The notes: generated by a model not told the origin, from the letters alone. A DNA stretch of 64,000 nucleotides from an uncultured Elusimicrobia bacterium (GCA_964604825.1 CAZSAL010000009.1:2479-66478); one strand, 5' to 3'. Positions 11,586 to 61,396 are shown, counted from the first letter of the stretch. Numbers and translations are program-made.

Positions 11586-11589
11586 TTAA

Positions 11590-41484: not shown

Positions 41485-41557
41485 TCCGGGATCATCTAAC
41501 GGTAGGATGAGAGACTCTGAATCTCTTCGTCTAGGTTCGAATCCTAGTCCCGGAGCC
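41485..41557 (+). tRNA. tRNA-Gln (anticodon CUG)
   Basis: Manually folded cloverleaf: acceptor TCCGGGA/TCCCGGA (U1-A72, typical of bacterial tRNA-Gln), D stem ATCT/GGAT, anticodon stem AGAGA/TCTCT with loop CTCTGAA (anticodon CTG), T arm CTAGG-TTCGAAT-CCTAG, discriminator G, then an encoded CC. Confidence 0.8.
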
Positions 41558-41589
41558 GACCGCATACTGTACAATGCTGAGAGCTTGTC

Positions 41590-42270
41590 ATGAACCGCAT
41601 TCTAATCATCGAAGACGAAAAAGACATTGTCCGGCTGGTGAAATATAACCTGGAAAAACAGGGTTTTGAAGTTTTATCCGCATCTGACGGCGCATCCGGC
41701 CTGGAACTTGCGCGTAAAGAAAAACCCGACCTTATAATCCTCGATTTGATGCTGCCCAAAATTGACGGGCTGGAAATATGCCGGACACTGCGCCAGGATT
41801 CCCGGGTACCGATCATTATGCTCACTGCCAAAAAAGAGGAAGTTGACCGTGTGTTGGGGCTGGAACTCGGTGCCGATGACTACATGACCAAGCCATTCAG
41901 CATGCGTGAATTGCTGGTTCGTATAAAAAATATTCTCCGCAGGGCGCGGGCGGAGGAATCCTCCGTAGAGGCCTTCCAGTGCGGCGATTTGAAGATCGAC
42001 CTGTCGAGATACACGGTGAATTTGAAAGGCAAGCCGGTCTCTCTCAGCTCTAAGGAATTCGAGTTCCTGAAAATATTGATTCAGGCGCACGGCAAGGCGT
42101 TGACCCGTGATCAGCTTCTGGAGCGGGTCTGGGGGTACGATCGCTCCATGGATATTGATACGCGGACGGTGGATCAGCATATCGCGCGCCTCCGGGATAA
42201 ACTGGGCTCAGAAGCCAGGCGTGTTATCACAGTGAAAAATGTCGGGTATCGATTTGCTGTGGAAAAGTAG
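41590..42270 (+). CDS. phoB: OmpR/PhoB-family response regulator
   Basis: Receiver domain (IIEDEKDIV...DLIILDLMLP...MLTAK) plus a winged-helix output (LSSKEFEFLKIL...RTVDQHIARLRDKL). Lies in a pit/phoR context. Confidence 0.8.
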   Translation: MNRILIIEDEKDIVRLVKYNLEKQGFEVLSASDGASGLELARKEKPDLIILDLMLPKIDGLEICRTLRQDSRVPIIMLTAKKEEVDRVLGLELGADDYMTKPFSMRELLVRIKNILRRARAEESSVEAFQCGDLKIDLSRYTVNLKGKPVSLSSKEFEFLKILIQAHGKALTRDQLLERVWGYDRSMDIDTRTVDQHIARLRDKLGSEARRVITVKNVGYRFAVEK

Positions 42271-43965: not shown

Positions 43966-45738
43966 ATGCATTTTACCTTCGCCAAAAAACTTACCTTAAG
44001 TTATCTGTTTGTCGTCCTTGTAACACTTGTCTTGACAGGACTGTTGTTCACCCGTCGTCTCCGGTCCGATTTTATTTCACACCTGGAACAATCGCTCGTC
44101 TCACAGGCAATTCTCACCCGCGCCGACACGATGCCCGCCTTTGAACAAAAGGTCGGGGCATATCAGTCCATAGTTCAGGCTCTGGCCAGGGAAACAGGAT
44201 CTCGGATTACTTTGATTCGCGCGGATGGAACCGTCATATCGGATTCCGAACAGGATCCCGGCGAATTAGCCGGTATGGAAAATCATCTGATGAGACCGGA
44301 AGTTCAGGCTGCCCTGAATACGGGCAGTGGTAAAGCGATACGCTACAGCAAAACCCTCCAAGAAGACATGCTTTATGTGGCTGTGCCGGCAGTATCCTCG
44401 GGAAAGCTTAATGGAGTTGTGCGAACCGCGTTGCCTCTGACTGAAGTAAACCGGCGGATTTCAACCTTTCAGAAAGATCTGCTTCGTGCAGGAGCAGCAG
44501 CCATGATCTTCGCACTGGCTATCGCGGTGCTGTCTGTTCGGCGCGTCAGCAGACCGCTTGAAAAATTGACTGATCTGGCGCAAAGGATTGGGAGAGGGGA
44601 ATATCCAGCCGAACAGTCTGTCGAAACGCCTGACGAATTTGGTCAACTGGCCAAAACGCTGGTTGAAATGTCTAAACGTATTCAGGAAAAGGTTCAGGAG
44701 CTGAATCTTGAACGCACCCAACTGGCGGCGATACTTTCGGCCCTTGTTGAAAGCGTGATCGCTGTTGACCACGAAGGAAAAATTCTCTTTTTGAACCCGG
44801 CTGCCGAGAGTCTGTTCCGCGTAAGTGCTTTGCAGGTTAAAGGCCGTCCAATGCTGGAAGCGCTCCGGCACAGTGTGTTGAGTGACGTTATCGCTAAAAC
44901 GCTGACCGGCAAAAAAGTTGTTGCTGAGGAAATAACGGTCCATTCTCCGGAAGAACATATCCTTGCCGTTCAGGCTCTGCCCGTGGCTTATGGCGAAGGG
45001 CGGACAGGGATACTGGTCGCGCTCAACGACATTACGGATCTGCGGAAGCTTGAACGCGTACGGCAGGAATTCGTTGCCAATGTTACGCATGAGCTCAAAA
45101 CGCCGCTGACGTCAATCAAAGGATTTACGGAGACGCTTCTGGATGGCGCGCTGGAAGACCCTTCTCATAACCGGGAGTTTTTAACGACAATCCAGGAACA
45201 TGCGACCCGCCTTGGGTTTCTGATTGATGACCTGCTGGATCTGGCGGCAATCGAGGCGAAAAGAATGGAGTACCGGTTCGAATCGGTCTCGGTGCCTGAT
45301 GTCGTAGAGCGCATCTTAAAAGGGCTTGCACCCATGGCAAAAGGAGGAAAAATCCAGATTCAAAACGATCTTTCTCCTTCTTTGCCAAAAGTACGAGCTG
45401 ACCGCGATAAACTGGCGCAGGTTTTTATCAACCTGATTGATAATGCCATTAAATTTAACAAACCTAATGGCTTGATCAAGATTTCCGCTGAAGCAAAGGG
45501 GAAAAACCTGGTTATTTCCGTGCGTGATTCGGGAATTGGAATTCCACAAACGGACCTGCCTCGCATCTTTGAGCGATTTTATCGGGTCGATAAGGCCCGT
45601 TCCCGAGAAATGGGGGGCACTGGCCTCGGCCTTTCCATTGTGAAACACTTGGTTGAGGCCCATCATGGGACGGTGAGCGTCCAAAGTATCGTTGATCAAG
45701 GTTCCAATTTTACTGTAAGCCTGCCTTTGGCGCTCTAG
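43966..45738 (+). CDS. phoR: Sensor histidine kinase (PhoR-like; TM, HAMP, PAS, HisKA, HATPase)
   Basis: ANVTHELKTPLTSIKGF (H-box), NLIDNAIKF (N), DSGIGIP (G1), GGTGLGLSIV (G2); an N-terminal TM/periplasmic loop and a PAS domain. Confidence 0.8.
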   Translation: MHFTFAKKLTLSYLFVVLVTLVLTGLLFTRRLRSDFISHLEQSLVSQAILTRADTMPAFEQKVGAYQSIVQALARETGSRITLIRADGTVISDSEQDPGELAGMENHLMRPEVQAALNTGSGKAIRYSKTLQEDMLYVAVPAVSSGKLNGVVRTALPLTEVNRRISTFQKDLLRAGAAAMIFALAIAVLSVRRVSRPLEKLTDLAQRIGRGEYPAEQSVETPDEFGQLAKTLVEMSKRIQEKVQELNLERTQLAAILSALVESVIAVDHEGKILFLNPAAESLFRVSALQVKGRPMLEALRHSVLSDVIAKTLTGKKVVAEEITVHSPEEHILAVQALPVAYGEGRTGILVALNDITDLRKLERVRQEFVANVTHELKTPLTSIKGFTETLLDGALEDPSHNREFLTTIQEHATRLGFLIDDLLDLAAIEAKRMEYRFESVSVPDVVERILKGLAPMAKGGKIQIQNDLSPSLPKVRADRDKLAQVFINLIDNAIKFNKPNGLIKISAEAKGKNLVISVRDSGIGIPQTDLPRIFERFYRVDKARSREMGGTGLGLSIVKHLVEAHHGTVSVQSIVDQGSNFTVSLPLAL

Positions 45739-45848
45739 CCAACAACAGATCCTTTACCTACGTGTAGCCGCCTGGAAACCTAAACTCAATCCCAAATCGA
45801 TTCAACAGTACGCCCCTCTTTTAATAGAGGATATTTTTGTCACACAAA

Positions 45849-45892
45849 TGTTACGTGGTTGTTACGGCAACGTTACAAACAACATTTATAAT
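45849..45892 (+). promoter_or_regulatory. Three 7-mer direct repeats at 11-bp periodicity (TGTTACG-tggt-TGTTACG-gcaa-CGTTACA) followed by TATAAT: OmpR/PhoB-type response-regulator site plus -10
   Basis: Repeats at 45849-55, 45860-66, 45871-77; TATAAT at 45887-92; an inverted copy CGTAACA at 45902-08. Sits between phoR and the 682-aa ORF. Confidence 0.5.
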
Positions 45893-45948
45893 TCTCCAAT
45901 ACGTAACATTGCGCGTCGTTATAAAAAGGGAGAAAGAAAAACCAACAC

Positions 45949-47997
45949 TTGGTTCTTTCACCTCTTTTTCAACGGTTTGTAACGCAGAATATAGTCCTTC
46001 TTTTTCTCTGCAATCCTCTGTTTGATGGTTGTTTAAATTTGGATCCATTTCAGGGACTTTCTCCTGCGCAATTCTGGCTCAGAAACCATTATCCCTCGCT
46101 CCTTACCGCAAAAGCGCTGCAGCAGCATTACGACGATCTTTTGAAAGGTTACGAAGTTCCTCAGACCGGTCTTTTCTTGAGCTTTCCTGAAACGTCAGAT
46201 CAACGTCTTGTCCAGCAGGCCTCTACTTATGATCAGGGTGTTATGGGAATTCTGCTGCTTAAACTGCACGACTTTAAGCGCGTCGCGGCCATCCTGCGGT
46301 TTTATCAGCATGCGTGGCAGGAGGCCAAAGAACGCAGCGGCCCGCGAAAAAACGTATTTGGTTTTGCCAACTTCTACAATGCCTACTACGGTGTTGAAGG
46401 AGTAGAAAAGACCATGCATGTCGGGCCGAACGTCTGGATCGGTCTTCTCGCGTCGCGCTATTATCGCCGGACCGGCGAGATCTGGGCGCGCGACCTGGCG
46501 CTTGAAATAGCGCGTTGGGAAATCCGGAGCGTTCCCCATACAGACGGCGCGGTAGCCATGGGTGAAATTCCCTGGAACGGCGCTCCCTGGTCTAATATTT
46601 ATTCGACAGAAAATAATATCAGTACCTACGCGTTCCTCTCCGATTTGCTCAAGGGGGAATCCCTTCCACCGGCAGACATGGAGTTAATCCGCAAAGAACG
46701 CAAAGCGATCGGCCGCTGGCTTTTGACCAAAGCCTATCATACGGACCAGAACGCTGTGATCCGCGGGTTCAATCCCGGCGGTGTTGACGATATTCCCGCA
46801 GTGGATTCCTATACCTGGTACATCGACGCCCTGCGGCCGGGGACATTCGAAAAAATGGGAATTCCTCTGCGCCGTCTGATGAAGCGCCTGCACGAAGAAT
46901 TCTTGGTGAAGGTAGGTCGTTTAAAAGGCATTGATTGCGTTGATCAGCGGACGGCAAAAGCCACTTATGAAGATGCGCTGCATGAACGTATCATGGATCC
47001 GAATTGGCATCGCCCCGAAGGAGACGATCACCGTCTGATCTGGTACGAAGGAACAGGACAGTTTATTGTAGCGCTGCAGGACATGGCGGTTCATGCCGTG
47101 AACCAGGCTTTTGAACTCCCGGAAGGTCCGCAGCGCGACCGGGTTCTTGGTGTGGCCGAAGGCTGGCTGCAGGAGGCAAAAGAATACGCCGATGCCATGG
47201 ATGCCGCCGCTTTCCGCACGGAAGCCTCCGGTGTCAGCTATCCACTCGCTACAAGGGGAAGATTTTATCTGTTCGGCTGGCCCGCTCCGCAGCCGGCAAG
47301 AGATCATCCTGCTAATGCCGTGGCGCCTTTGGCCTGGCGGATTTTTGCCGGGATGGGCTATGAACCCTTATCTGATACGGATCTTAAACCTTCAGGGAAG
47401 TGGTACGTAAAAAAAGCGTCGTATCATTATGAAACGGTCCGCGATCCTGGAACGGAAATCCTTTATGGCGCCAGCGAGGAAATGTCTATCAGGGCCTGGC
47501 AGCTGTTCGAGTCCGGGCTATACGACAAGGCCTGGAGGCAATCGCGGGCGACGATCCACCTGTGGGAAGAAGACGCCGGAAGGCTGGAAGCGCGCAAAGA
47601 GAAGGCAGTGGGCGGCTTTCTTTTCTATGACGGCACGGTAGCATCTTTTCAGCGCATTCACGATTACTGGGCGCTCAATGACGTGGCCGCCAGCTATTTT
47701 GTCTGCGCGGAGATCTGCGATCGCGAGGGGCGCTATCAGGAAGCAAAAATCATCTTTTCTCACATCTTAAAGGATTTTACGCTGGCCCAAATTTGGGATA
47801 AACGGGGCTGGTTCTGGACGCCTGCTGAGACCATCGCCGAGGATTTCATCGCACCGTTTCCTGAACGTTACTCTGAGCTTATGGCTGATGTCCCGGAAAC
47901 GTTCAGGATCAATCCCCGATTTATTCCCGGATGGAATTCAACTCCTCAAGCAATGGCAGCCAAGACTCCGCAGTGGTATTACGACGCAATCCAATGA
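45949..47997 (+). CDS. Hypothetical protein (682 aa), candidate Pho-regulated
   Basis: Long ORF with no recognised motif. Preceded by an 11-bp-periodic direct-repeat site plus TATAAT. Start uncertain (TTG 45949). Confidence 0.45.
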   Translation: MVLSPLFQRFVTQNIVLLFLCNPLFDGCLNLDPFQGLSPAQFWLRNHYPSLLTAKALQQHYDDLLKGYEVPQTGLFLSFPETSDQRLVQQASTYDQGVMGILLLKLHDFKRVAAILRFYQHAWQEAKERSGPRKNVFGFANFYNAYYGVEGVEKTMHVGPNVWIGLLASRYYRRTGEIWARDLALEIARWEIRSVPHTDGAVAMGEIPWNGAPWSNIYSTENNISTYAFLSDLLKGESLPPADMELIRKERKAIGRWLLTKAYHTDQNAVIRGFNPGGVDDIPAVDSYTWYIDALRPGTFEKMGIPLRRLMKRLHEEFLVKVGRLKGIDCVDQRTAKATYEDALHERIMDPNWHRPEGDDHRLIWYEGTGQFIVALQDMAVHAVNQAFELPEGPQRDRVLGVAEGWLQEAKEYADAMDAAAFRTEASGVSYPLATRGRFYLFGWPAPQPARDHPANAVAPLAWRIFAGMGYEPLSDTDLKPSGKWYVKKASYHYETVRDPGTEILYGASEEMSIRAWQLFESGLYDKAWRQSRATIHLWEEDAGRLEARKEKAVGGFLFYDGTVASFQRIHDYWALNDVAASYFVCAEICDREGRYQEAKIIFSHILKDFTLAQIWDKRGWFWTPAETIAEDFIAPFPERYSELMADVPETFRINPRFIPGWNSTPQAMAAKTPQWYYDAIQ

Positions 47998-48121
47998 TCC
48001 CTCATAATGTGACAACTGCATGACAAAAAGTCCCGAAATTTCATGGGACCTTTTGCCCTCGATTTTTAGCCCTTCGCTCTATCGATAAATTCCCTGCATC
48101 CAGCTACAATCTTCTCGTCGA

Positions 48122-51100
48122 ATGCCGCAGATGTTTTCTGCTGCTGCAGCGATAACAAAAAGGGAAATAGCCGTTCAATTTGGAGGCATGCTCTTCGTGC
48201 AGCCTTTTCCCTTTTTGCGTTTTTCCTTCATGACCCTCAAGCGGATCATCGGCATTGCGCTTTGCTGCGCCGTTTCCCTCGGAGACCCAGTCTGGGCTTC
48301 AGGAATCCATGTATCCATGAATCGGAGCACCAGAGCGCTGGAGCACCGGAGCGATGTCTTTTCCCCGGTTCCCCGGTTCATCGGTTCTCCGGTTCGGTCA
48401 TTCGAAGAGCAGACGGTAGTTCCCAGGCTTTCATGTGCGTATCGCGCGGGCGCCTCCACGCTGTCGGGTTTCCGTATACTGCGTGCCATGCTTTCGAACC
48501 AGGCCTCAGAGACCCCCCTGTCTCTCCATGAGGCTCTGCGTCATGCCCGGCGTTTTGTGGGCATCGATTTTGTCCAGGGTTTCCATAAGCCGGCCAATCC
48601 ATTCGCTTTATGGTCATACGTCAATTTGATGGGAAGCAATTTTGAAGAACTTTTCGAGAATTTCAGGAATCTGGATTATGACGCTCCAGGTTACCGGGAA
48701 ACAGCTGCGGCCTTGCGCCTTAATCAGGACCTTTCCCGATATAGCGAGCTTCTCGAACTTTACGCCGATTTAAAAGAGAAAAATCCGGAAGATCCCAGAT
48801 TGGCAGATCTTCGCGGCATCCTGCGGCATAAACAATACAACGGGATCCTGGCGAAAGAAGGTGACCGTAAACCCGGGCGCAGAGGCGGTATCCCGATCAA
48901 TCGACGTACATGGGACGGTCGGGGTGACGAAACATGCGGTCTGATCATCGATGAAATCCTCCGGCTGCACAAGGAAGCTCCAGATAAAACGATTATTATC
49001 GACGATTGGGCCGTTTCGGATGGCATTACTTCCATGGGACTTGCCCGCCGGATCGAAGAAAATGACCTGTCGAGTTTTGTTTCCATACGGGCGTATGACA
49101 AGTCGTTATCCTTCTGGATTTCCGACAAAATGCTCGATGGCTACCGGCTGATTTTTGACGCCAGCGGGCATTTAATCCAGGCTGTGCCCGTAAATCCAGG
49201 CCGGCTTTGGGTGCGCTGGACTCTGGCGGATTATTTCTCCAAGTGGGTCCGGGACAAGCTGGAACGATGGATGTCCACCCGGGGGAACACTCTTGTCGGC
49301 AGGGAACGATTTCCCGTCCGGAATATACCTATTGAAACGCTTGAGAAACGTTTCATGCAGGCAAAAGCACAGGAAGACGGTTCTCTGGTGCGTATCTCAC
49401 TGTTGGACCCCGAGGTAGAAGCCTACAGTCGGGCGCATCCTCGTCTGCTGCAGTTTTTTGAAGCCGATATTAGACAGCCGCCTTTCCGTGGTAACCCGGA
49501 TGAACAGGCTTCAGTGATCCGCGTCATGGGGCTCATGATGCGGAATAAGGAATATTTCAGCGATTCCACAATTAAACGGACGCTGGCTAACCTTGCAGGT
49601 AACTCTTTCCCCGAGCAGGAAGGCATGATGCTTAACGGTGTGGTCGGTTCCATTAAGAAGCCGGAACAGTTATTCCTTGATGTTTATCGCTTCAACGGGG
49701 AGTCTCTGAATTTGGAAGATTCCAGAGGGTACAAAACTGACCGTGGCTGGGAACAGATTTATTTATCCGAATTCCCTCATGAACTGCCTCGCGACGGCGG
49801 AGTTTCCGGTAGCGCCTCGGGCGCTTCGGTTGGCAATAACAGACAAAAACGCAGATCAGGCGCCTCTATGTTCACATCCCTGGCAGGGCACAGGCAGGTT
49901 ATTTTGATAGCTGGGGTTCTGTTGTTGCTGCTGGTTATGGTGTCTTTCCCTTTAGCCGCTCATTCCTTGGCGGCAACCGCGCTCCATCCGGCCGTGCACC
50001 ATATTGCGCCTGTTGCGCAGCAGGGTGTTGACCACGTAATGCATGGCGCGCAAATGTTTTCCGTCCCGGGAATTAACGGCCTGCCGACGGTTACCGATTA
50101 CGATAAAATCAACCCCGGATATATAAATCATCTGGTTCAGAATTTAGTGAACGGAACGGACGGTTTTTCCCTGCATCGCGATTTACTAACCCAGACGCTG
50201 CATCATCAGCCTGACAATCAGGAACTCGTAGATTACGTCAGGCATCTTCATATGCTGAGGGTTGATGTCAGTCATGCAGGCCCGCAGCCGATACATGACC
50301 TGGCCCAGAAAGTTCTCATTATGGATCACCAGATCTATCAGCCCGGTCAGGCGATCCCGAATTTTTCCGGAAAAGAAATTGAAGCAATGACAGAGGTCAT
50401 TAAAACGGCCAACCCGCATGGCATTATGGGGAATCAGGTCTGGATCCCGGAATTTTTCAAACCTCATCTGGATGTGGTAACTGATCCTAAAATGGTGGAT
50501 TGGCATTCGTTCAGCTGCCTGCCGCTGCATCCTGTCTCGCCCGGCCATCAAGGTTTTCCCTTCTCTTCGCATTTTCCGAATCTACATCAAGCGCCGGCAG
50601 CTCCAGCGCATTTAGTCGCGCCTGCTCCGGCTACCACAGTTCCGCCCGCTCAAACTCCACCGGTGGCGCCAGCTCCGGTTCATCCGGTTGCACCCGCTCC
50701 TGCTCCCGGCGTGCAACCTGCTGCCCCTCCGGCTCTGCCATCGCCACAGGCATCTACGCATCCTCCTATAGTGCCGTACGCGGCAAAAGATTTGGATTCT
50801 TATGTTCCCTATCCGCTGCAGTTGATTCTCAAAGAAATAATGGAAGGTGGTTTCGGCCTGGCAGCGTTGATTGTATCGTTGAGATGGATCTTACGGGTAC
50901 CGCGCATAACGCCCGTGCCGCCTCCCGGCTCTCCGGAGGAAGGCTTGATGAAGCAGGATAGAAGGATGCTCCGGATTTATGGAGTTCTGGAAGACATGGG
51001 GCAGGATAACCGAAAAGCCCTTAATCTTGAAGATATATACATAAAATTAAATCCCTCCCATACCAGTGAGTTGAGCCGGAAAGAAAAAAGACATCTGAAC

Positions 51101-54100
51101 AGGATGATAGGCAGAATTCAAAAGAGGATAAAAGCGAAACAAAACAATCAACCGAACGCGTCTGCGCCTTTGCCGGTTTTCCTTTCTCTGTCCTTTTATG
51201 GGGTTTCGTATTCCGCATGGCTTGCGGTACCTGTTTGTATTGCGGGAGGGCTGTGGCTATGGAATGACCGGAAAGAGAAACGATATGGTCAGGCGATAGA
51301 CGCTTATTTAGGAAAACCTGGCAAACCTGAAGAAATAGAGACAGCGATTTCCAAAGGTTCGCTTATTGATCCGCTTCCTGTACGGGAAGTTGATGCCCAA
51401 GTCAGCAATTTGATTAACCGGACGGCATTGATCGCGGGGGGATCGGCAGTCCTGATTTGTTTGGCATTTCTGCTGGCGCCTGCGTGGGCTGGCGTAGAAC
51501 ATCAGCTTCAGCAATCAGTACCGAACTTCCTGTCAATATTTGTAGGCGGTGGAACAGGCTATCTGTTGTTCCACAAAAATTTACGGGACCCCAGCAAAAA
51601 TAGACCTTATATCTACTCAGAATTGACCAATCGTAAATATGACGATAGATATAAACTCGCAATTGGCGGGTCGTTTGTCATGTTTGTGTTGGGGTCGTCG
51701 ATTCATTTTGCCTATTTATGGCTGGAGTTGTTGGGGGCTTTTGTTATTGGTTTTGGCTACATATGGTACCACTATTGGACAGGCATCCCGGCGGAAGAAA
51801 TGAAGCGTCCGAAAAATACGGAACTGGAGGAGTGGGAACAACTGCTGACCGAAGGGCTTACGAGAAACGACGACCCCGTAATTTTCAGCGCCCACACTCT
51901 GGATAATCTTTTCAACCGGCTGATCCCAATTCTTGCCGTTAAAGCTTTCGAACCAACGATCATTGGGAACCCCGGTAGGATAACCGTATTCAACAGATTT
52001 CATGAAGAACTAATGTATCTCGCCGAGGATACGCTTCATAAACTTGATCAATTGCCAGCTCCCGGAACAGACCAGGAAAAGTCGCGCCTGCAGTTGACGC
52101 GCCTGCGAACTGTGCAGATCCTGAAATATGCGGTTGCCTCCCGTATGGTGGGGGATCACGCATTTGCCGCCGCCAATCTGGCTGGTTATAAATTTGTCCG
52201 CCGTTTTGGCCGTATTGGGGGGGCAAAAGGAATCTATCTTTCGGACCTGGTGCAAGGTGTTGCTCTCGCATGGCTGAGAATCGAACAGGGAAGAAAAATT
52301 ACGAAATCCAAGCTTGCAGTATCAGTTTTTAAAATGGGCAAAGCGGGCAATGAAATGCTGCCGGGGCTGTTCCCGCGGATCCCGCAGTTCGGGGCTGCCT
52401 CACCTATCGAGTTAGAGCAGGAAGATATGGAGGATTATGAACTGTCTAAAGCTGCCGTAGAAGCGGTGGACAAGCTTATTGCCAACCTGCCTGATATGTA
52501 CTCGGGAGACCAGGTGCAAAAATCGCATCGTCAGATATATGGGCGTGCTGCAGGCTTGCTGGGCTTTGTCTTGCTTGTCATTTCCGTTTGCATGTCGCCT
52601 AACGGGTCTGCTTTTGCGCTGCTCCGGCTTTGGACTTCCATTATCACTTTCCCGATTGCCGTATATTGGATTACACACTGGCAGGCCGCGTTTGAAGCCC
52701 GAAGAGAATTTGTCACATCCAGGATAAATGAGTTGGAAAGTAAAAGCTATAAAGACTTACCCGCCCGTGCGTCTACTGAAGACGCCGCCCAAAAAATGTT
52801 TTTGGAGCAGATCCTTGCTTCCGCTACGCCGGACTCGGATCCTAATAGGCCCTTCTCTTTGGATTTGATTGTAATTGTGGTCAGAGATGAGGCCACCAGG
52901 AATGCGCTGGAAGCCAGGCTAAACGCTATGCAGGATCAATTAGGTTTGCCCGAAAGTCAACGACTGCCCGTATATTTTCTCACCAGTCAAACCACCATGG
53001 TGGCTGACATGCTTCAGGCTCATAGTTATTTGTTGAAAAAATGGGCAGACGTCCAGGAAGCAATACGCAATCAGCACGGCTACGAAATACCAGCCTTGAA
53101 AGACAGCCGTATAGGGGTCCTGATCGCTTCCGGATTGGCTGAACAGCCGTTTGATCCACTGATCAGGACAGGCATCGTATTGAGGACTGGAGATGCTAAA
53201 GCCTCTTTTGGATTTGATATGCCTTCGAATGAACAACTGATTTCCGGAGCTTTCAATGTGCTTAATCTTCTGTACCATGCGCAGGCGTTTAAGGATAAGG
53301 GCCAGCGCGCTTACCTGGTTGACAATGCACATAGTATTTATATCGCGCCGCGTTATGAAATTGATGATCAGAATCGCGCACCCGTGCGCTTGGGAATATA
53401 CACTGCCCACGTTAGCAAACAGGATATCGAAGACGCTAACAGCCGGGAGAGGAATAAGAAAGATTTATTGGGTATTGCAGGCATCGACATAGCAGTCCCG
53501 CGGTATGCGCACAGTGGAACCGGAAATGACGACAGCGAAGTTCTGCAGGGCCTTTACGCAGGGCCCAATGGGCTCAGGCGGGCACAGCAGGATATGAAAA
53601 GTGGACAATATGCAGACATTCAAGATGTCAGACAGTATCTGGGCGCGACCGGCCTGACAGTTATGGCGGCAGAGTCTGCCTTGGAACAAATATCTTTTGA
53701 AGGTCAAATGATGGACCCTTACGAAGTGTCATTGATTTTACTTGACCGTATTGCCGACAAGGCCATAGAACTCGCCAGATCGATGCCGGAGCAGGCGAGA
53801 ATGTTCACTTTCAAAATTCGAGCGCATCTTCTGGTTGCCCTGATTATGGCACGGGACAGGAGACGTCTTGATGGATTCGTCGGCCAGTCACTCAGAGAAT
53901 TGGAACAGCTCATGGCCACCCCGAACGCAGCGCTGCCTGATCAGCGAAACGATATAAGCGCGAATGTCCCCGATCCTCTTAAGGACGCGCAAGAAGCACT
54001 TCGCAAATATTTTGATTTTCTCTTCGAGTTAAGGGAGGCCGCCGGGAAACTGATCGATTTTGAAACCATTATTCCAAGCCATGATTATTTCAGGCTGCTC

Positions 54101-54208
54101 TATCCAGATGGGGGCACAATAGCACACGAAGATCTCGCAAGAATCAGTAAAGCGCCTGCTCTTAGCGGAAAAGTGACTTCGCCTGGTGCGCTCAAAGCGG
54201 CGGCCTGA
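48122..54208 (+). CDS. Giant (2028 aa) multi-pass membrane protein of unknown function
   Basis: Continuous 6.1-kb ORF. Probable signal peptide (MTLKRIIGIALCCAVSLGDPVWA); at least 6 strongly hydrophobic helices; a His-rich segment; a Pro/Ala-rich linker (APAAPAHLVAPAPATTVPPAQTPPVAPAPVHPVAPAPAPGVQPAAPP); ~500-aa soluble regions at the N-terminus and C-terminus with no recognisable catalytic motifs. Confidence 0.6.
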   Translation: MPQMFSAAAAITKREIAVQFGGMLFVQPFPFLRFSFMTLKRIIGIALCCAVSLGDPVWASGIHVSMNRSTRALEHRSDVFSPVPRFIGSPVRSFEEQTVVPRLSCAYRAGASTLSGFRILRAMLSNQASETPLSLHEALRHARRFVGIDFVQGFHKPANPFALWSYVNLMGSNFEELFENFRNLDYDAPGYRETAAALRLNQDLSRYSELLELYADLKEKNPEDPRLADLRGILRHKQYNGILAKEGDRKPGRRGGIPINRRTWDGRGDETCGLIIDEILRLHKEAPDKTIIIDDWAVSDGITSMGLARRIEENDLSSFVSIRAYDKSLSFWISDKMLDGYRLIFDASGHLIQAVPVNPGRLWVRWTLADYFSKWVRDKLERWMSTRGNTLVGRERFPVRNIPIETLEKRFMQAKAQEDGSLVRISLLDPEVEAYSRAHPRLLQFFEADIRQPPFRGNPDEQASVIRVMGLMMRNKEYFSDSTIKRTLANLAGNSFPEQEGMMLNGVVGSIKKPEQLFLDVYRFNGESLNLEDSRGYKTDRGWEQIYLSEFPHELPRDGGVSGSASGASVGNNRQKRRSGASMFTSLAGHRQVILIAGVLLLLLVMVSFPLAAHSLAATALHPAVHHIAPVAQQGVDHVMHGAQMFSVPGINGLPTVTDYDKINPGYINHLVQNLVNGTDGFSLHRDLLTQTLHHQPDNQELVDYVRHLHMLRVDVSHAGPQPIHDLAQKVLIMDHQIYQPGQAIPNFSGKEIEAMTEVIKTANPHGIMGNQVWIPEFFKPHLDVVTDPKMVDWHSFSCLPLHPVSPGHQGFPFSSHFPNLHQAPAAPAHLVAPAPATTVPPAQTPPVAPAPVHPVAPAPAPGVQPAAPPALPSPQASTHPPIVPYAAKDLDSYVPYPLQLILKEIMEGGFGLAALIVSLRWILRVPRITPVPPPGSPEEGLMKQDRRMLRIYGVLEDMGQDNRKALNLEDIYIKLNPSHTSELSRKEKRHLNRMIGRIQKRIKAKQNNQPNASAPLPVFLSLSFYGVSYSAWLAVPVCIAGGLWLWNDRKEKRYGQAIDAYLGKPGKPEEIETAISKGSLIDPLPVREVDAQVSNLINRTALIAGGSAVLICLAFLLAPAWAGVEHQLQQSVPNFLSIFVGGGTGYLLFHKNLRDPSKNRPYIYSELTNRKYDDRYKLAIGGSFVMFVLGSSIHFAYLWLELLGAFVIGFGYIWYHYWTGIPAEEMKRPKNTELEEWEQLLTEGLTRNDDPVIFSAHTLDNLFNRLIPILAVKAFEPTIIGNPGRITVFNRFHEELMYLAEDTLHKLDQLPAPGTDQEKSRLQLTRLRTVQILKYAVASRMVGDHAFAAANLAGYKFVRRFGRIGGAKGIYLSDLVQGVALAWLRIEQGRKITKSKLAVSVFKMGKAGNEMLPGLFPRIPQFGAASPIELEQEDMEDYELSKAAVEAVDKLIANLPDMYSGDQVQKSHRQIYGRAAGLLGFVLLVISVCMSPNGSAFALLRLWTSIITFPIAVYWITHWQAAFEARREFVTSRINELESKSYKDLPARASTEDAAQKMFLEQILASATPDSDPNRPFSLDLIVIVVRDEATRNALEARLNAMQDQLGLPESQRLPVYFLTSQTTMVADMLQAHSYLLKKWADVQEAIRNQHGYEIPALKDSRIGVLIASGLAEQPFDPLIRTGIVLRTGDAKASFGFDMPSNEQLISGAFNVLNLLYHAQAFKDKGQRAYLVDNAHSIYIAPRYEIDDQNRAPVRLGIYTAHVSKQDIEDANSRERNKKDLLGIAGIDIAVPRYAHSGTGNDDSEVLQGLYAGPNGLRRAQQDMKSGQYADIQDVRQYLGATGLTVMAAESALEQISFEGQMMDPYEVSLILLDRIADKAIELARSMPEQARMFTFKIRAHLLVALIMARDRRRLDGFVGQSLRELEQLMATPNAALPDQRNDISANVPDPLKDAQEALRKYFDFLFELREAAGKLIDFETIIPSHDYFRLLYPDGGTIAHEDLARISKAPALSGKVTSPGALKAAA

Positions 54209-54281
54209 GATATCTCCGTCACCCTGCTGTCATCCAGTTTTTACTCCGCCATGACTCCATTTCGCCGCCGTTCGTGCCACA

Positions 54282-55358: not shown

Positions 55359-55796
55359 CTAACGCAATGAAAAAATGAAAAGGATTGCTGCGCAGAGAAG
55401 CATCCGCCAGTGGTCGGCAGGGAGTCCCCACAACCATTTAGTATGCCATGTGGCTTTATGGGGATTGTGATTTTTCCATCCGAAAGCGGGATTAGCCAGA
55501 AACCAGACCAAATCTTCCACCACCCAGAAAACAAAAATCCAGGAGATGGCCCGGAATTCAAGCCGGGCATTCCATGTCCATGACCAAACAAACGGCATGT
55601 GGAAAACCGCAATAATGAAGGAAAAAGCCCACAGATGGTAACCCGTCAGGGGGCGGTCCCCTAAGGCAATATTAAGGAGAGGATGTTTTATCCGCCAGGT
55701 CGGCAGGTTTGCGGCCCAGCCGCCGGTGCCTTCGATTTCAATTTCCAGTTTGGCCCAGATATAGGCGGCCACAAGAACAAAGACAAATTCCCGAAT
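55359..55796 (-). CDS. Small integral membrane protein (hypothetical), last gene of the PlcP-like operon
   Basis: Trp-rich hydrophobic 145-aa product from the internal Met (MIREFVFVLVAAYIW...). That start abuts the upstream GT28 gene stop. Confidence 0.35.
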   Translation of the reverse strand: MREFVFVLVAAYIWAKLEIEIEGTGGWAANLPTWRIKHPLLNIALGDRPLTGYHLWAFSFIIAVFHMPFVWSWTWNARLEFRAISWIFVFWVVEDLVWFLANPAFGWKNHNPHKATWHTKWLWGLPADHWRMLLCAAILFIFSLR

Positions 55797-56923
55797 CATG
55801 CAACCATTGAATGCGAGATTATATTTTCGGCTATCGCGAAGGCGGCTTTGGGCCGGGAACATCGGGTGATATTTTTCCCAAGTTCCTGCCGTAGCAGGGG
55901 TTCGCTCATGGTGAGCAGAACAATGGAAGGCAGATCCTCAAAAGCGGGAGCTCTCAGCGCAGCGTGCTGTGAAGCAAGGAAGCGCGCATTGCGTTCCTCC
56001 TGTCCCGGGATCGGAGAAATCAGAATCATCAGTTTTTTCTTGGCCAGACATTCAGAAACGGTCAGGCCGCCGGGTTTGGTGATAACTATGTCCGAGACGC
56101 TCAAGAGCTCATGCATGTTATCTACATAGCCGAGATTGTGCAGCGTCATCGCCGGCGGAGGCGTGATACGGTTCAGGCGTTCGCGCAGTTCCGCGTTGTT
56201 CCCTGAAATCGTAACCACCTGGAAAGCTCCGGGCAGAGTCAGAATCCGGTTGACCGCTTTTTCCAGAGACGCAAGCCCCAGACCGCCGGTAAGCATAACC
56301 AGAACAGGCCGGACGGGGTCGAGATGGAATTTCCTGTAGAGGGCCGCAAGATTTACCGCGTCCGTAAATGCCGGATGAACCGGAATACCGGTTACTGAAA
56401 TGCGTTCGTTTGGAATTCCCCTGGCCGCGAGCGCTTTGACCAGACCTTCATGCGCTACATAATACCGGGAGATGTTGCGGGAAATCCAGAAGGGGTGAAT
56501 GCTGTAATCCGTAATCACGCATTCGAGCGGGATGGATCGCAAAGCTTCATCCGGAGCAATCGCCATAAGCTGAGGGATAAGGAAATGAGTGGTAACTATC
56601 AAGTCGGGTTTAAAATTCCTGACGCAACCAAAAAAACGCGAAACGAATGATCTCTGAGCGCGGCAGAAAATGGGAGTGAGTTTTGACTCAGGCTGTCGGC
56701 GGTCCCAGAAGTGATAAAGGCGGCCCCACAGGGATGGCGCGCGGTTCACGGCAAAGCGATAGCCGTCCAGATATAAACGCCGGAATGCCGGCGCCGCATA
56801 ATCTGTTGCGTCGATATGAAGCGTTTCAATTTCCGGCGCAGTGCGGCGCAGCGCTTCACGGATGGCTTCTGCCGCGCGCACATGGCCGCAGCCTGTCCGG
56901 ACCGATGTGATGAGAATTTTCAC
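55796..56923 (-). CDS. Diacylglycerol glycosyltransferase (MGDG-synthase-like, GT28 family)
   Basis: N-terminal MKILITSVRTGCGHVRAAEAIREAL (MGDG_synth-like), C-terminal GT-B half (ITKPGGLTVSECLAKKKLMIL). Confidence 0.65.
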   Translation of the reverse strand: MKILITSVRTGCGHVRAAEAIREALRRTAPEIETLHIDATDYAAPAFRRLYLDGYRFAVNRAPSLWGRLYHFWDRRQPESKLTPIFCRAQRSFVSRFFGCVRNFKPDLIVTTHFLIPQLMAIAPDEALRSIPLECVITDYSIHPFWISRNISRYYVAHEGLVKALAARGIPNERISVTGIPVHPAFTDAVNLAALYRKFHLDPVRPVLVMLTGGLGLASLEKAVNRILTLPGAFQVVTISGNNAELRERLNRITPPPAMTLHNLGYVDNMHELLSVSDIVITKPGGLTVSECLAKKKLMILISPIPGQEERNARFLASQHAALRAPAFEDLPSIVLLTMSEPLLRQELGKNITRCSRPKAAFAIAENIISHSMVA

Positions 56924-56981
56924 CCCACCACCTCATTGGGTACGACAATACCCGCCGTCGGTGTGCAATGAGGTGGTGGGA

Positions 56982-57875
56982 TCATGAAACGCTCACCGCA
57001 ACCGGCGGGGCATTCTCTTGCCGGGATTTTTCCGGGGACATGATCTCAATCCAGGAAAGCATCTCCAGCCGGCCGTCGAAGTGCTCTACCAGGGCAGTGG
57101 CGCTTTCCACCCAGTCGCCGTCGTTGCAATAAAGAACGCCGTTACACTCGCGGATTTCCGCTTTATGAATGTGTCCGCAGACGATGCCGTCCAGCTTACG
57201 GTGCCGGCATTCCTGAACAACCGCTTCTTCGAATGAGGAAATAAAGTTAACCGCATTTTTGACCTTGTTTTTTAAGTACGCCGAGAAGGACCAGTAATGG
57301 TATCCCAGCTTCAAGCGGAAATGATTGAAAATCCGGTTGATGACCAGAGCCACTTCGTAAGCTTCATCGCCGATCCTTGCCAGCCAGCGCGCGAATTTGA
57401 CGACATTGTCGAATTGATCGCCATGCAGGACGAGAAGCTGTTTGCCGTCGGCAGTTCGGTGAATAATTTCTGAGGCAATGGTGATCCGGCCGAAGACCTG
57501 TTTTCCAAAAGCGCGCAGGAATTCATCATGATTGCCGGAGATCAGGTAAACGGAAGTGCCTTTGCGCGCTTTGCGCAGGATTTTTTGAATAACGTCGTTG
57601 TGCGACTGCGGCCAATACCAGCTTTTCTTAAGCTGCCAGCCGTCAATAATATCTCCTACCAGGTAGAGATAATCGCAGTCTGTTCTGCGCAAGAAATCGA
57701 GCAGAAAGCGTGTTTGTGAGTTGCGCGTTCCAAGGTGCAGGTCAGAAATCCAGACGGTTCTGTACTTCCTGACGCCGTCAATTAAATCTTCATTTAAAGG
57801 ATCAGATACTCCTCCGTGTGAACCTGAATCGGAAGAAAAATTTAAAAGGCTTCGAAAAAGTTCTGTGAAATCCAT
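56982..57875 (-). CDS. LpxH-family metallophosphoesterase, PlcP-like (putative phosphate-starvation phospholipase C)
   Basis: WISDLHLG, LVGDIIDGW, GNHDE, LHGDQFD, GHIHK are the calcineurin-like/LpxH metal ligands in order. Sits 59 nt upstream of a DAG glycosyltransferase and next to a Pho box. Confidence 0.6.
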   Translation of the reverse strand: MDFTELFRSLLNFSSDSGSHGGVSDPLNEDLIDGVRKYRTVWISDLHLGTRNSQTRFLLDFLRRTDCDYLYLVGDIIDGWQLKKSWYWPQSHNDVIQKILRKARKGTSVYLISGNHDEFLRAFGKQVFGRITIASEIIHRTADGKQLLVLHGDQFDNVVKFARWLARIGDEAYEVALVINRIFNHFRLKLGYHYWSFSAYLKNKVKNAVNFISSFEEAVVQECRHRKLDGIVCGHIHKAEIRECNGVLYCNDGDWVESATALVEHFDGRLEMLSWIEIMSPEKSRQENAPPVAVSVS

Positions 57876-57940
57876 TGATCAAGTTTAACAGGGGTGGGCT
57901 GAATAACCTATTGCAGGCCTGCAAATTCTATGTGAATTGT

Positions 57941-57983
57941 GTGTGACAGTTATGTCATTTATTCGTCATGTATCTTTTACAAA
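57941..57983. promoter_or_regulatory. Pho-box-like site (TGTCAT-ttat-TCGTCAT with an inverted TGTCAC upstream) in the divergent promoter region
   Basis: GTGTGACAG-ttaT-GTCAT-ttat-tcGTCAT: hexamers at 57953-58 and 57964-69 (11-bp spacing), with CTGTCAC on the other strand at 57943-49. A TACAAA -10 candidate lies 9 nt downstream for the + gene. Compare the E. coli Pho box CTGTCAT-N4-CTGTCAT. Confidence 0.5.
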
Positions 57984-58048
57984 TCTGATACAGAATTCAG
58001 GAAACGTATCAGGTAAGATTCAAATCACAAAAAGGGATAAAGGAAATC

Positions 58049-59338
58049 ATGGAAACGCTAAAAGTTGCAATCCCTTTTTCTGCCCAGACGGTCTGCGACC
58101 CAAATCCGCAAAACTATCACATTTACGACAAAGTACGAGCTTTCAACAAGCATTCCGATGAATTGCGCGCCGGGGGGCTCTATTTCTACATGCGCAAGCT
58201 CCAGTCGTCTTCGGAGGCCCACGTTGTGATCAACGGCCAGGACATGCTTATGTTTGGTTCCAATAATTATCTTGGGTTGACTACTCACCCGAAGGTTAAG
58301 GAAGCGGCGCGCAATGCTCTGGAAAAGTACGGGATAGGCGCCGGATCTGTCAGGCTCCTTGGCGGAACATTCAATCTGCACGAGGAACTTGAAGAGCGTT
58401 TGGCCAATTTTAAAGGGACAGAAGCGGCAGTCGCCTATAGTTCCGGGTATGTATCAAACGTAGCGACACTCTCAAGTTTTCTTTCGAAATCTTCAGATTT
58501 GGCCATTATTGACGAAAGAATTCACGCGAGTTTGGTTGACGGCTTGCGGTTTGCCCAAATCCCCTTTCGTGTATTCGGCCATAACGACATGCGTGATCTG
58601 GCCATTAAGCTGGAGGTCTCAAAAGGCAGGGGCAACCTCGCCATTATTGTTGACGGTGTTTACAGCATGGACGGCGATATCGCCAATCTGCCGGACGTCT
58701 ACCGCTTGGCGCGCAAGTATCAGGCGGTTGTCATCATCGATGAAGCGCATGCCACAGGGGTCCTTGGAGCCAGGGGCCGCGGGACGCCGGAACATTTCGG
58801 ACTTCACGGCAGGATTGATCTGGTCATGGGAACCCTCAGTAAAGCGCTGGGAGGTATTGGCGGTTTCGCCGCAGGACCAAAGATCCTGGTTGACTATTTG
58901 AAACATGTGGCCCGCGGCTTCGTTTTCAGCGCGGCGCTCCCTCCGGCAGTGTGCGCAGGACTGATCGCCTCCATCGACGTGATTGAAAATGAACCAGAAT
59001 GGCTTATTCGCCTGCGGGAAAATACAGGTTTATTAAGGAAAGGACTTCAGGAGCTGGGGTACAACACGGCTCACAGCGAAACGCCGATCATCCCCATTAT
59101 CCTAGGTGAAGACCTGACCGCCTATCAAATGACCCGCGCCCTTCATATGCTTGGGGTTTATGTCAGTCCGGTCACGTTCCCCGCAGTCAAAAGGGGTCAA
59201 TCCCGGATCCGGGTAAGCACTATGGCAACTCATACCACACAGGATATTTTAAAAGCCCTGGAAGCGTTTGATAAAGCCAGGAAAATAGTGCCAAATCTTC
59301 CGCTGCCCGAGAGCTTAACACAACACAACGCAGCTTAA
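58049..59338 (+). CDS. alpha-Oxoamine synthase family PLP enzyme (Kbl / serine palmitoyltransferase / BioF-like)
   Basis: FGSNNYLGL, DEAHATG, GTLSKALGG (PLP-Lys); ~400 aa. Confidence 0.75.
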   Translation: METLKVAIPFSAQTVCDPNPQNYHIYDKVRAFNKHSDELRAGGLYFYMRKLQSSSEAHVVINGQDMLMFGSNNYLGLTTHPKVKEAARNALEKYGIGAGSVRLLGGTFNLHEELEERLANFKGTEAAVAYSSGYVSNVATLSSFLSKSSDLAIIDERIHASLVDGLRFAQIPFRVFGHNDMRDLAIKLEVSKGRGNLAIIVDGVYSMDGDIANLPDVYRLARKYQAVVIIDEAHATGVLGARGRGTPEHFGLHGRIDLVMGTLSKALGGIGGFAAGPKILVDYLKHVARGFVFSAALPPAVCAGLIASIDVIENEPEWLIRLRENTGLLRKGLQELGYNTAHSETPIIPIILGEDLTAYQMTRALHMLGVYVSPVTFPAVKRGQSRIRVSTMATHTTQDILKALEAFDKARKIVPNLPLPESLTQHNAA

Positions 59339-59526
59339 TCGACAGACGAATGTTTTCGGGCGGTATCCCTTTCCCTTTTTGTGGATACCGCCCTCTTTTT
59401 TTGTGGGAGTTATCTTACATGCCGTCATCCATTTGTCATACAGACTTTACATCGTCACAATGGGCTTCCTGCCGGTTTGCCTTTACAATACCCGCAACAA
59501 TAGAAATCACAAGGGAGGTCACTGAC

Positions 59527-59697
59527 ATGGTGATCCAGATGAAAGAAGAGTTCCTTGCGGCGAGCATCCGCAAACAGGCCGAGACACTAAATAACCTGAT
59601 TCATGAAATGGAAACTGAAAAATTGGTTGGAGACGCTCTGGCCTGGAGAATCCGGGCGGTGGAATTACAACTGCGACGAATCCGCGAAGCCGCTTAA
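59527..59697 (+). CDS. Small helical hypothetical protein
   Basis: 56-aa coiled-coil-like product (MVIQMKEEFLAASIRKQAETLNNLIHEM...). Weak call. Confidence 0.25.
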   Translation: MVIQMKEEFLAASIRKQAETLNNLIHEMETEKLVGDALAWRIRAVELQLRRIREAA

Positions 59698-59934
59698 GGG
59701 GAAAGAGAATAGCTACCGAAGAATTTTATGAACCTACAAAAAGGAAAGTCTCAGGGAAGTCGCATAGGATCACGCTTTGGCGGGCGGCGCCCTTTTTCCC
59801 TTTTTGCGGGCGGCGCCCGCTTCTTTATACAGCATACTGTAACTCAAAAAAATAACAAGGTAGTTTCTTGACGGAAACGGAAACGGAATAAAACATCAAA
59901 TGAAACAACAAACCAACAAATGGAGGGCGTATAG

Positions 59935-61378
59935 AATGAACAGTCACAATAAAAAGGGAAAGGTGCGGGAAGTAATCGCCGTTCTCGCAGCTTTACTCGT
60001 TATCGGGGGGACTATTCCTTCCCATGTCATGGCAGATGAAACGGCGACCTTAACAGTTAAATCCATACCGAATGTCAGCATCCGGATGTATGGGTTTATG
60101 GAAAATGATGTGATTAATGATGCCAAACAGATCAGTTCATTGGAAGAATTGGACAATCCGCTGGTGCCTAAGGCAAGCACATGGGCGGGACAGAACGGCA
60201 GAACAATAGATAGCGTCCGGAACAGCCGCCTCGGGTTTGATGTAACGATGCCTGAGACTGACTTCGGGCTGAAATCGGAAGCCATTGTTGAACTCGATGC
60301 GTTGGGTGACAATGCCGAAACTCAGACTGCTGGAGCCAACACGGCTGTCGGCACCAGTCTCTCTGGCAGCACGCTCAAAACCTCGAACATCGGCACGCCT
60401 GGGTCTATGTCAGAAAGAGACCTGTTCAATAACCCAACAATCCGTATTCGTCATGCTTATGGCAATTTCACGGATGGACAGTGGAATTTTAAGGTTGGCC
60501 AGACATGGTCACTCCTGGGATGGCAGCCGCACTACTTCCCTGCGGAACCGAACGTTGCGCCTACGGTTGGCATGCTCTACCGCCGCTTCCCGCAGATCCG
60601 GGCGACAAATACCCAGAAGCTGGGAGATTCCTGGACTCTGGAAACCGCCTTGGATTTTGCCAAGCCTGCGGAAATGAATGGACAGTCTCCGGAATATCAT
60701 GCCGGTATCCGCCTGGCGTCTACAAAGACAACGGCCGGTGTCTGGGCCGGATCCGGAAGCAGCATGGAAGGGCTATCATTGGCAGCGTCGGGAGCTATAA
60801 TCCCGATCCGTACTGGAGATGGCAGTCCTACGGGCTCCGCCATAGCGCTGGATGCCTTTATTCCCATTATCCCTTCTTCGGATGGGAAGAATGCTTCCAA
60901 CACGCTGTCTCTTCTGGGCGAATACTGTAATGGAACTGGTATAGGCGGTCTGGAAATTGCCGGTTTAACGGGTGGCCTCAGCACCATAACCAGTGTTACG
61001 GCGGCAGCAGCACAGGCTAATGGTCTGACTCCGCAGACGGCTATCGATTCCGGTATGGCTGCCATCAGCGCTACCGGGGCTGTGGAACTGCTCCATGTGC
61101 AGACCTATCGCGCCAGCCTGCAGTACATTTTCCCGAGCCCCAAATGGTCCATTAACGGTGGTTTCGCGGATGAAAGTATTCTGAACCTAGCGGACTTTAC
61201 TGCCAGCACCAGTCTGTCACCGCGCGATCAGTATTTCTTCGGCAACATACTCTATCAACCGTTGAAATGGCTGAAATTTGGGTTGGAAGTTGCTCAGATC
61301 AAAACGACTTACACGGACGCAGCCAATACCTACGCCTATGATAATCGCTCGCAGTTCACCACATACGTGATGTTCTAA
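59935..61378 (+). CDS. Outer-membrane porin-like beta-barrel protein (immediately upstream of pstS)
   Basis: RBS GGAGGG 9 nt before ATG 59935; signal peptide ...VIAVLAALLVIGGTIPSHVMA; Gly/Ser/Thr-rich amphipathic strands; C-terminal ...TTYVMF. Confidence 0.5.
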
Positions 61379-61396
61379 GTCTTAACCGTCCATGGG

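Follow-up and report, generated by a model that had tools for sequence, protein, structure and literature searches.

Does a short tract of direct repeats, located immediately behind a set of phosphate-limitation genes, control two large genes of no recognised family, and if so which of them and through which regulator? This question is raised by a 64,000-nucleotide stretch of DNA from an uncultured Elusimicrobia bacterium (GCA_964604825.1 CAZSAL010000009.1:2479-66478), hereafter called the window, in which a reading made from the sequence alone (the sequence-only reading) had noticed, directly downstream of phoB-DUF47-pitA-phoR, a response-regulator-type repeat site followed by open reading frames (ORFs) of 682 and 2028 amino acids (aa), ORF682 and ORF2028. 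We propose here that the repeats, at 45837-45880, are a PhoB/PhoP-type Pho-box operator serving an ORF682 promoter devoid of a -35 element, and we would put the probability of this explanation as a whole, including the mechanism described below, at about 0.65.

A four-unit array upstream of ORF682

The three heptamers are where the sequence-only reading had placed them, TGTTACG at 45849-45855 and 45860-45866 and CGTTACA at 45871-45877, with an exact period of 11 bp, and the TATAAT at 45887-45892 lies 9 nt past the last heptamer and 10 nt past the hexamer core CGTTAC (ending at 45876). A fourth unit had been missed one period 5' of the three heptamers: TTGTCAC at 45837-45843 is canonical, and units 2-4, with GTTAC, differ from the canonical core by one or two bases. 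Within the 64 kb, GTTAC is found 25 times on the plus strand and 35 times on the minus strand, and copies spaced by 11 and 22 bp occur solely at this array. The region comprises the following features, the units of the array starting at 45837, 45848, 45859 and 45870:

45815..45830, plus strand: weak terminator-like hairpin 3' of the kinase gene (CCTCTtttaatAGAGG, then ATATTTTTGT), from the terminator scan; its stem has just 5 bp and it folds no better than shuffles
45837..45880, plus strand: Pho-box array of four direct 11-bp units, TTGTCACacaa ATGTTACgtgg TTGTTACggca ACGTTACaaac (sequence, repeats, matrix)
45887..45892, plus strand: -10 hexamer TATAAT, 10 nt 3' of the last core (sequence, sigma-70 scan)
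45901..45910, minus strand: perfect inverted 10-bp copy of unit 2 (AATGTTACGT), just 3' of the -10 (repeat search)
45975..45984, minus strand: perfect inverted 10-bp copy of unit 4 (CGTTACAAAC), in the first ORF682 codons (repeat search)

The sigma-70 promoter scan returned no -35 hexamer with at least 4/6 matches 16-18 nt 5' of TATAAT, and the proximal TTTACA/GTTACA units were rejected as ordinary -35 hexamers because their spacer to the -10 is just 9 nt. The array and leader region has no Rfam match, and the exact promoter sequence was not found in JGI metagenomes. Regarding the inverted copies, they pair 45847-45856 with 45901-45910 (unit 2) and 45871-45880 with 45975-45984 (unit 4), at centre-to-centre distances of ~54 and ~105 bp, which correspond to whole helical turns (about 5 and 10), and at least two such 10-mer pairs arise in at most 1.5% of Markov shuffles of the 231-bp region. 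A leader RNA structure was considered for these pairs and rejected, since they cross each other and their 5' arms precede the predicted transcription start; on the simplest reading, the inverted copies would be candidate extra sites for the regulator, acting by looping or negative control.

Four further arrays are present in the window, all nearer to the classical CTGTCAT consensus than the array at 45837-45880, and together they outline a candidate operator motif of the host:

54216..54248, plus strand: three units, CCGTCAC, CTGTCAT and TTTTTAC, located past the ORF2028 stop and ahead of a GNAT gene
57928..57949, minus strand: CTGTCAC/AATTCAC, toward the PlcP-like gene and divergent from the array at 57952
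57952..57984, plus strand: ATGTCAT/TCGTCAT/CTTTTAC, toward the gene of a serine palmitoyltransferase (Spt)-like protein
59422..59454, plus strand: three units, 5' of a 56-aa ORF (59527-59697)

A matrix was trained on the three plus-strand arrays at 54216, 57952 and 59422, the tested site being excluded. In its full-width 11-bp form, its top three-unit match outside the training set, on both strands of the window, is 45837-45869; in its core-only form, no other four-unit array of the window scores as high as 45837-45880, which reaches 30.1, to be compared with a null maximum of 12.1 +/- 1.9 (largest 16.6) over 40 Markov shuffles. Moreover, the degenerate pattern YGTYAY-N5-YGTYAY-N5-YKTYAY, which gauges specificity and not discovery, has five matches between 45.8 and 59.5 kb, all on the plus strand and 5' of plus-strand genes, with 0 matches in 100 shuffles and 0 matches in 84 other loci totalling 1.24 Mb. 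The view that the repeats behave as an OmpR/PhoB-type operator in place of a -35 element is borne out by this motif, which recurs before other phosphate-stress genes and before the closest ORF682 ortholog.

The proteins that would act at this site are encoded just upstream:

41590..42270, plus strand: response regulator of the OmpR family (PhoB/PhoP-like), presumed to bind the array (Pfam Response_reg and Trans_reg_C)
43966..45738, plus strand: phosphate-type sensor histidine kinase of sCache-HAMP-PAS-HisKA-HATPase architecture (Pfam)

The kinase scores 434 bits on the NCBIfam PnpS equivalog, above its cutoff of 400, and the Pfam and NCBIfam annotation shows no other regulator gene in the cluster. 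In the mechanism that we favour, phosphate limitation would lead the PnpS/PhoR-type kinase, whose gene is just upstream of the array, to phosphorylate the OmpR-family regulator, whose own gene is 4 kb upstream; once phosphorylated, this protein would bind the 11-bp repeats head-to-tail and bring RNA polymerase to the -35-less promoter. The gene under direct control would be ORF682. Its product, predicted to be a six-hairpin carbohydrate-active enzyme that ends in a TPR domain and is either exported or anchored in the membrane, would act on a glycan or on the headgroup of a glycolipid while the envelope is remodelled under phosphate stress.

ORF682, ORF2028 and their relatives

Both ORFs have the announced lengths, 682 and 2028 aa. 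The idea that neither has a recognisable domain holds in terms of family models, as neither matches Pfam or NCBIfam, and fails for ORF682 in terms of predicted structure:

45949..47997, plus strand: ORF682, with a signal anchor, an (alpha/alpha)6 six-hairpin barrel (~50-470) and a TPR-like C-terminal domain (~505-650)

Homologues of ORF682 number 36, with identities of 35-59%, defining a family of at least 36 members; in all of them the N terminus includes a hydrophobic segment, an argument for placing the start of ORF682 at the TTG of 45949. Given the family alignment, AlphaFold2 modelled ORF682 with a predicted local distance difference test score (pLDDT) of 90.1, and the six-hairpin fold of carbohydrate enzymes, with its (alpha/alpha)6 barrel, is confidently predicted, as is the TPR-like nature of the C-terminal domain. 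At the sequence level, the barrels of the 36 members gave no Pfam or NCBIfam match except one to Glyco_hydro_76 at E = 0.061, ORF682 falls in no curated glycoside-hydrolase family and it has no sequence relative in the PDB. Five acidic residues of the barrel are invariant in the family (E153, E221, D280, D286 and E367). Among reference genomes, full-length relatives are confined to Elusimicrobiota, and the last ~150 residues are also encountered in Omnitrophota, Planctomycetes and Gammaproteobacteria; from this distribution, the window probably stems from an Elusimicrobiota genome. ORF682 represents a new sequence family with a known fold, as judged from the model.

The genomic company of this family is what places it in phosphate-stress envelope remodelling, as its members repeatedly adjoin genes of phosphorus-free lipid synthesis, namely for PlcP-like phosphoesterases, glycolipid synthases and OlsB/OlsA-like acyltransferases. 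Indeed, the closest ortholog (58% identity, on a 6-kb contig, L088) stands beside orthologs of the PlcP-like (72%) and monogalactosyldiacylglycerol (MGDG)-synthase-like (52%) genes of the window, and the two top-scoring arrays of this contig are located 5' of the ORF682 ortholog (3335-3378) and 5' of the next gene (5550-5582). The latter reads TTTTTAC/CCGTCAC/TTTTCAC followed by 10 nt and TATGAT, with the same geometry as in the window. On another contig (P0005), the family neighbours Metallophos, OlsB-like and OlsA-like genes; in L004, OlsB-like and OlsA-like genes lie ~9 kb from the ortholog, and in L002 and L003 the neighbourhood holds GT4, GH2_C and MFS genes with a polyphosphate kinase nearby. 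Most likely, ORF682 acts on a glycan or glycolipid headgroup in this remodelling, a substrate that we infer.

Some further features of these loci can be recorded. Between the PlcP-like gene and the ORF682 ortholog, L088 encodes a ParB_N/HTH_ParB protein (2339-3283) that has no counterpart in the window. In L085, an ortholog with 51% identity is followed by a gene for a 1544-aa protein (9721-14355) with a signal peptide and no Pfam match; it was considered as a homologue of ORF2028 and rejected for want of similarity. Large unannotated exported proteins following an ORF682-family gene may be a recurring pattern. Finally, L083 carries at 259-2160 a 633-aa ORF682 paralogue (37% identity) of a short subfamily in an unrelated neighbourhood; this locus comes from the same ENA sample as the window contig (ERZ27250145) and probably from the same genome.

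ORF2028 (48122..54208, plus strand; ORF, codon usage and hydropathy) is a giant multi-pass membrane protein. The features attributed to it by the sequence-only reading are all present, namely a signal-peptide-like N terminus, a His-rich tract, a Pro/Ala block and hydrophobic segments, of which hydropathy shows at least eight. Its organisation, by hydropathy, is as follows:

Residues 37-60: signal-peptide-like segment
Residues 593-611: strong transmembrane helix
Residues 612-905: Lys/Arg-poor, His-rich loop ending in the Pro/Ala block
Residues 906-924: transmembrane helix
Residues 925-1027: very basic loop
Residues 1028-1214: four transmembrane helices
Residues 1215-1470: soluble domain
Residues 1472-1517: transmembrane hairpin
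Residues 1518-2028: soluble domain

The His-rich tract contains 23 His in residues 612-830 (219 residues), and no internal repeats were found in the protein. Its topology is ambiguous: the signal-peptide-like N terminus implies an exported N domain, whereas the positive-inside rule implies a cytoplasmic N domain with the His/Pro-rich loop outside. The ATG at 48230 (MTLKRIIG..., signal-peptide-like) is the likely true start, favoured by the N terminus of the positional counterpart of ORF2028 in L088, a truncated gene after the ORF682 ortholog. This counterpart begins MKRYLYRLVACLLVPAMIVADPGWASG, ORF2028 begins MTLKRIIGIALCCAVSLGDPVWASG, and both share a similar signal-peptide end, DP(G/V)WASG; 14 of 43 residues are identical, with a pairwise E of 1e-4 that would not be significant as a database search.

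Several lines of evidence establish ORF2028 as a genuine, native and lineage-specific giant membrane protein without detectable relatives. Its frame extends over 6087 nt without a stop at 52% GC, its codon usage is host-like when the confident genes of the window serve as reference, with frame 1 favoured in every 200-codon block but the Pro/Ala block and the short C-terminal remainder, and an identical protein is recorded on three contigs (ENA, JGI, NCBI). A full HMMER search with residues 940-2028 against 1.84 billion representatives, the strongest of the negatives, returned only ORF2028 itself, as did a word-index search with the whole protein; with residues 38-600, the latter search returned nothing, not even the source protein, a weak negative, as are word-index negatives on fragments generally, so that the N-terminal half is less well covered. 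A metagenome peptide-pattern scan gave nothing, tblastn against all fetched loci, plasmids and phages gave no significant relative, and no match was obtained in Pfam (five segments, E up to 10), in NCBIfam, PADLOC and PHROGs, or among PDB sequences under E = 0.15. A single-sequence AlphaFold2 model of residues 61-590 was unusable (pLDDT 41). By eye, motifs of a CheR-like methyltransferase in the N domain and of a nucleotidyltransferase in the C domain were suspected; no tool supported them and they are not claimed. The sole hint of kinship, the L088 counterpart, is positional and suggests that ORF2028 is no isolated case but part of a rapidly evolving gene class. Our best guess is that ORF2028 is a structural or scaffolding protein of the envelope and not an enzyme of a known class.

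Does the array also drive ORF2028, as had been supposed? The two ORFs are separated by 124-232 nt, depending on the start of ORF2028, and three elements intervene:

48005..48026, minus strand: near-canonical two-unit box, TTGTCATgcag TTGTCACatta (TTGTCATgcagTTGTCAC), directly after the ORF682 stop
48030..48054, plus strand: weak hairpin GUCCCG(8 nt)UGGGAC, then C-UUUU, a possible partial terminator (RNA fold)
48082..48110, plus strand: sigma-70-like promoter TCGATA-17-TACAAT, 5' of ORF2028 (promoter scan, 9/12 matches)

With these in between, the claim is not supported as worded, and the link of ORF2028 to the array at 45837-45880 is weak: the gene would be reached from the array promoter only via read-through past the weak hairpin and may also use a promoter of its own, both being plausible. 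The box is oriented opposite to both flanking genes and has a two-unit score of 16.1, the third best in the window (null maximum 13.8 +/- 1.3, largest 16.9), with no -10 at the proper distance on the minus strand; antisense, roadblock and upstream-site functions are candidates for its role. The 682/2028 pair is missing in most relatives; an array of the same motif precedes the L088 ortholog and, by matrix and pattern, none is present in L002-L014 and L083-L087.

Weighing the readings of the locus

A number of observations weigh against a PhoB/PhoP-type operator controlling a glycan-active ORF682. On the NCBIfam PhoB model, the regulator reaches 234.5 bits where the cutoff is 296, and its scores do not set PhoB apart from RpaB or YycF. 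Units 2-4 have GTTAC where the other sites of the window have a GTCAY core, and the same affinity for one regulator is not assured; the choice of the training arrays was visual, and the sites matched by the degenerate pattern are those that had served to define it. Simple activation does not account for the two inverted unit copies 3' of the -10, and pstS has no array directly upstream, the nearest being 2 kb off, past a terminator-like hairpin. Most ORF682 orthologs, the more distant ones, lack such an array: by matrix and pattern, none is present in L002-L014 and L083-L087, where a matrix built from this genome may not apply, and the orthologs of L002-L004 sit within other operons. As for the enzyme, the acids of the ORF682 family could not be mapped on the catalytic positions Asp47/Glu262 of MmpH (PMC9883506), and the fold also houses epimerases, isomerases and terpene cyclases.

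Three alternatives have to be set against this background. According to one of them, to which we would grant somewhat less than even odds, the array is a real OmpR-family operator for ORF682 only, and ORF2028 depends on its own sigma-70-type promoter, outside the phosphate response or controlled via the inverted box. The hairpin with its U tract after the ORF682 stop, TCGATA-17-TACAAT at 48082-48110, the lack of a plus-strand array at the right distance from this TACAAT, the ORF682 orthologs found without an ORF2028-like neighbour and the presence of an own array in most neighbouring transcription units all speak for such a separation. However, the hairpin is weak (6 bp, 4 U), goes unrecognised in the terminator scan and does not outdo shuffled sequence, sigma-70-like sites are not more numerous than shuffles lead one to expect, the intergenic region harbours a near-canonical two-unit box, and in L088 the ORF2028 counterpart is preceded by a canonical Pho-box promoter of its own, which argues that the gene class is phosphate-regulated. 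A different proposal, which we consider quite improbable, takes the GTTAC repeats as the operator of another direct-repeat regulator and not of the adjacent PhoB-like protein, only unit 1 being Pho-box-like. It could draw on the GTTAC(G/A) common to units 2-4 and unused at the other four arrays, on the perfect 10-bp inverted unit copies downstream, absent from those arrays, and on the score of the regulator below the PhoB cutoff. Yet a matrix blind to 45837-45880 still puts this site at the top, a canonical TTGTCAC opens the array in phase, the spacing to the -10 is that of PhoB, the cluster encodes no other regulator and the units at the L088 ortholog are of the CGTCAC/TTTTAC type.

The view that ORF2028 is not functional, but a chimera of the assembly, a pseudogene in decay or a long ORF that arose spuriously, would explain why no search found a homologue and why no candidate start has an obvious ribosome-binding site; it is hard to reconcile with 6087 nt open at 52% GC, with host-like codon usage that favours frame 1 everywhere except in two blocks rich in Pro/Ala or Ala, with identical proteins on three contigs (ENA, JGI, NCBI) and with a coherent membrane-protein organisation, and we give it very little credit. 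Conversely, a bolder extension of our proposal can be formulated, although it appears rather unlikely at present: ORF2028 and its truncated L088 counterpart would found a class of phosphate-starvation-induced giant envelope proteins of Elusimicrobiota, working with ORF682 in a new form of envelope or glycolipid remodelling or of phosphorus scavenging, with the inverted units adding a further level of control through looping or repression. ORF2028 would then combine a His-rich, Pro/Ala-tethered extracytoplasmic module, three large soluble domains and an eight-helix membrane core. The reading that we retain is that of a Pho-box operator acting directly on ORF682.

The phosphate-stress cluster and known systems

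The description of the neighbourhood as one of phosphate limitation is upheld by Pfam and NCBIfam for pitA, pstS, the PlcP-like gene and the glycolipid synthase. Indeed, the flanking genes code for the OmpR-family regulator, DUF47, PHO4/PitA, the PnpS/PhoR-type kinase and PstS (above its own NCBIfam cutoff), and further for a Metallophos (PlcP-like) protein and an MGDG/diglucosyl-diacylglycerol-synthase-like glycosyltransferase, the latter two genes adjoining each other at 55796-57875 on the minus strand with the array at 57928-57949 on the same strand. The 'porin' of the sequence-only reading is less secure: ORF492 (59900-61378, plus strand) has a signal peptide and a C terminus ...YVMF as in outer-membrane beta-barrel proteins, and matches no Pfam or NCBIfam family, leaving the label unverified. 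ORF492 and pstS are downstream of the array at 59422-59454, beyond a terminator-like hairpin; such hairpins were seen at 59370-59395 and 59806-59820, and another hairpin is found ahead of pstS at 61393-61427.

Other genes of the cluster deserve mention. The 'aminotransferase' at 58049-59338 (plus strand), behind a Pho-box array, is an alpha-oxoamine synthase of the BioF/Kbl family, whose best named matches include serine palmitoyltransferase, under the cutoff of that model; the position of this Spt-like gene hints, from sequence, at a possible sphingolipid or aminolipid synthesis in phosphate stress. Directly behind another array, a 56-aa helical ORF (59527-59697, plus strand) with a strong GGGAGG ribosome-binding site has no family match. 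Immediately 5' of the regulator gene, a tRNA-Gln (CTG) is encoded at 41485-41557 (plus strand), and a TG-TACAAT -10-like element at 41568-41575 leaves a very short leader to the regulator ATG at 41590. At a distance from the cluster, at 27501-27515 on the minus strand, two copies of GTAAC are spaced by 10 bp (plus-strand sequence GTAACAATAAGTAAC); the part of the window in which they lie, 26-28 kb, is the poorest in GC (0.485).

Taken together, the elements of the window fit consistently into one phosphate regulon of an uncultured phylum, in which at least five putative operators share a motif and surround genes for taking up phosphate and for making phosphorus-free lipids (PlcP-like, glycolipid synthase and Spt-like); this motif could be used for genome-wide regulon prediction. 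An uncharacterised six-hairpin family of Elusimicrobiota gains a physiological context, phosphate stress and envelope remodelling, and ORF2028 becomes a candidate component of the envelope under phosphate stress. The regulatory logic is that of textbooks and current understanding is not overturned.

In Escherichia coli and other Proteobacteria, the Pho box of PhoB is CTGTCAT-N4-CTGTCAY, replaces the -35 and lies 10 bp 5' of the -10, the E. coli phoA promoter being arranged as core, 10 nt and -10. The array of the window likewise has 7-bp cores and 4-bp spacers, an 11-bp period, a direct orientation toward the gene, a last core 10 nt from the -10 and no -35, and its unit 1 (TTGTCAC), as well as the other arrays of the window, are close to the consensus. 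In contrast, it has four units instead of two, three of them being TGTTAC/CGTTAC (C to T at core position 4), and inverted copies of two units 3' of the -10; moreover, the host probably belongs to Elusimicrobiota, and the kinase is built like the PnpS/PhoR kinases of Gram-positive bacteria. In Bacillus subtilis, the PhoP box consists of four TT(A/T/C)ACA repeats, a hexamer resembled by the promoter-proximal units GTTACA and TTTACA. Regarding Streptomyces PhoP, its operators, the PHO boxes, are built of 11-nt direct repeat units that number from two up to six or even more, and binding is nucleated at the well-conserved core units, from which it reaches the less conserved ones (PMC2275107). The array shares with these operators its multiple units of 11 nt, while its consensus differs from G(G/T)TCAYYYR(G/C)G.

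With respect to the six-hairpin glycosidases MmpH, GH15 and GH125 (clan GH-L; PMC9883506), ORF682 shows 7-14% identity and, unlike them, adds a signal anchor and a TPR domain. Finally, the cluster can be compared with the PlcP-Agt module of phosphorus-stress lipid remodelling (PMC4796936). ORF682 and ORF2028 are not among the described components of this module, the glycosyltransferase of the window is GT28/MGDG-synthase-like, and the Spt-like alpha-oxoamine synthase and GNAT genes are additional members of the cluster. Like the module, the cluster has a PlcP-like metallophosphoesterase gene adjoined by one for a glycolipid glycosyltransferase, with a Pho-box-like array before them, and the L088 ortholog of ORF682 adjoins the same PlcP-like/MGDG-synthase pair.

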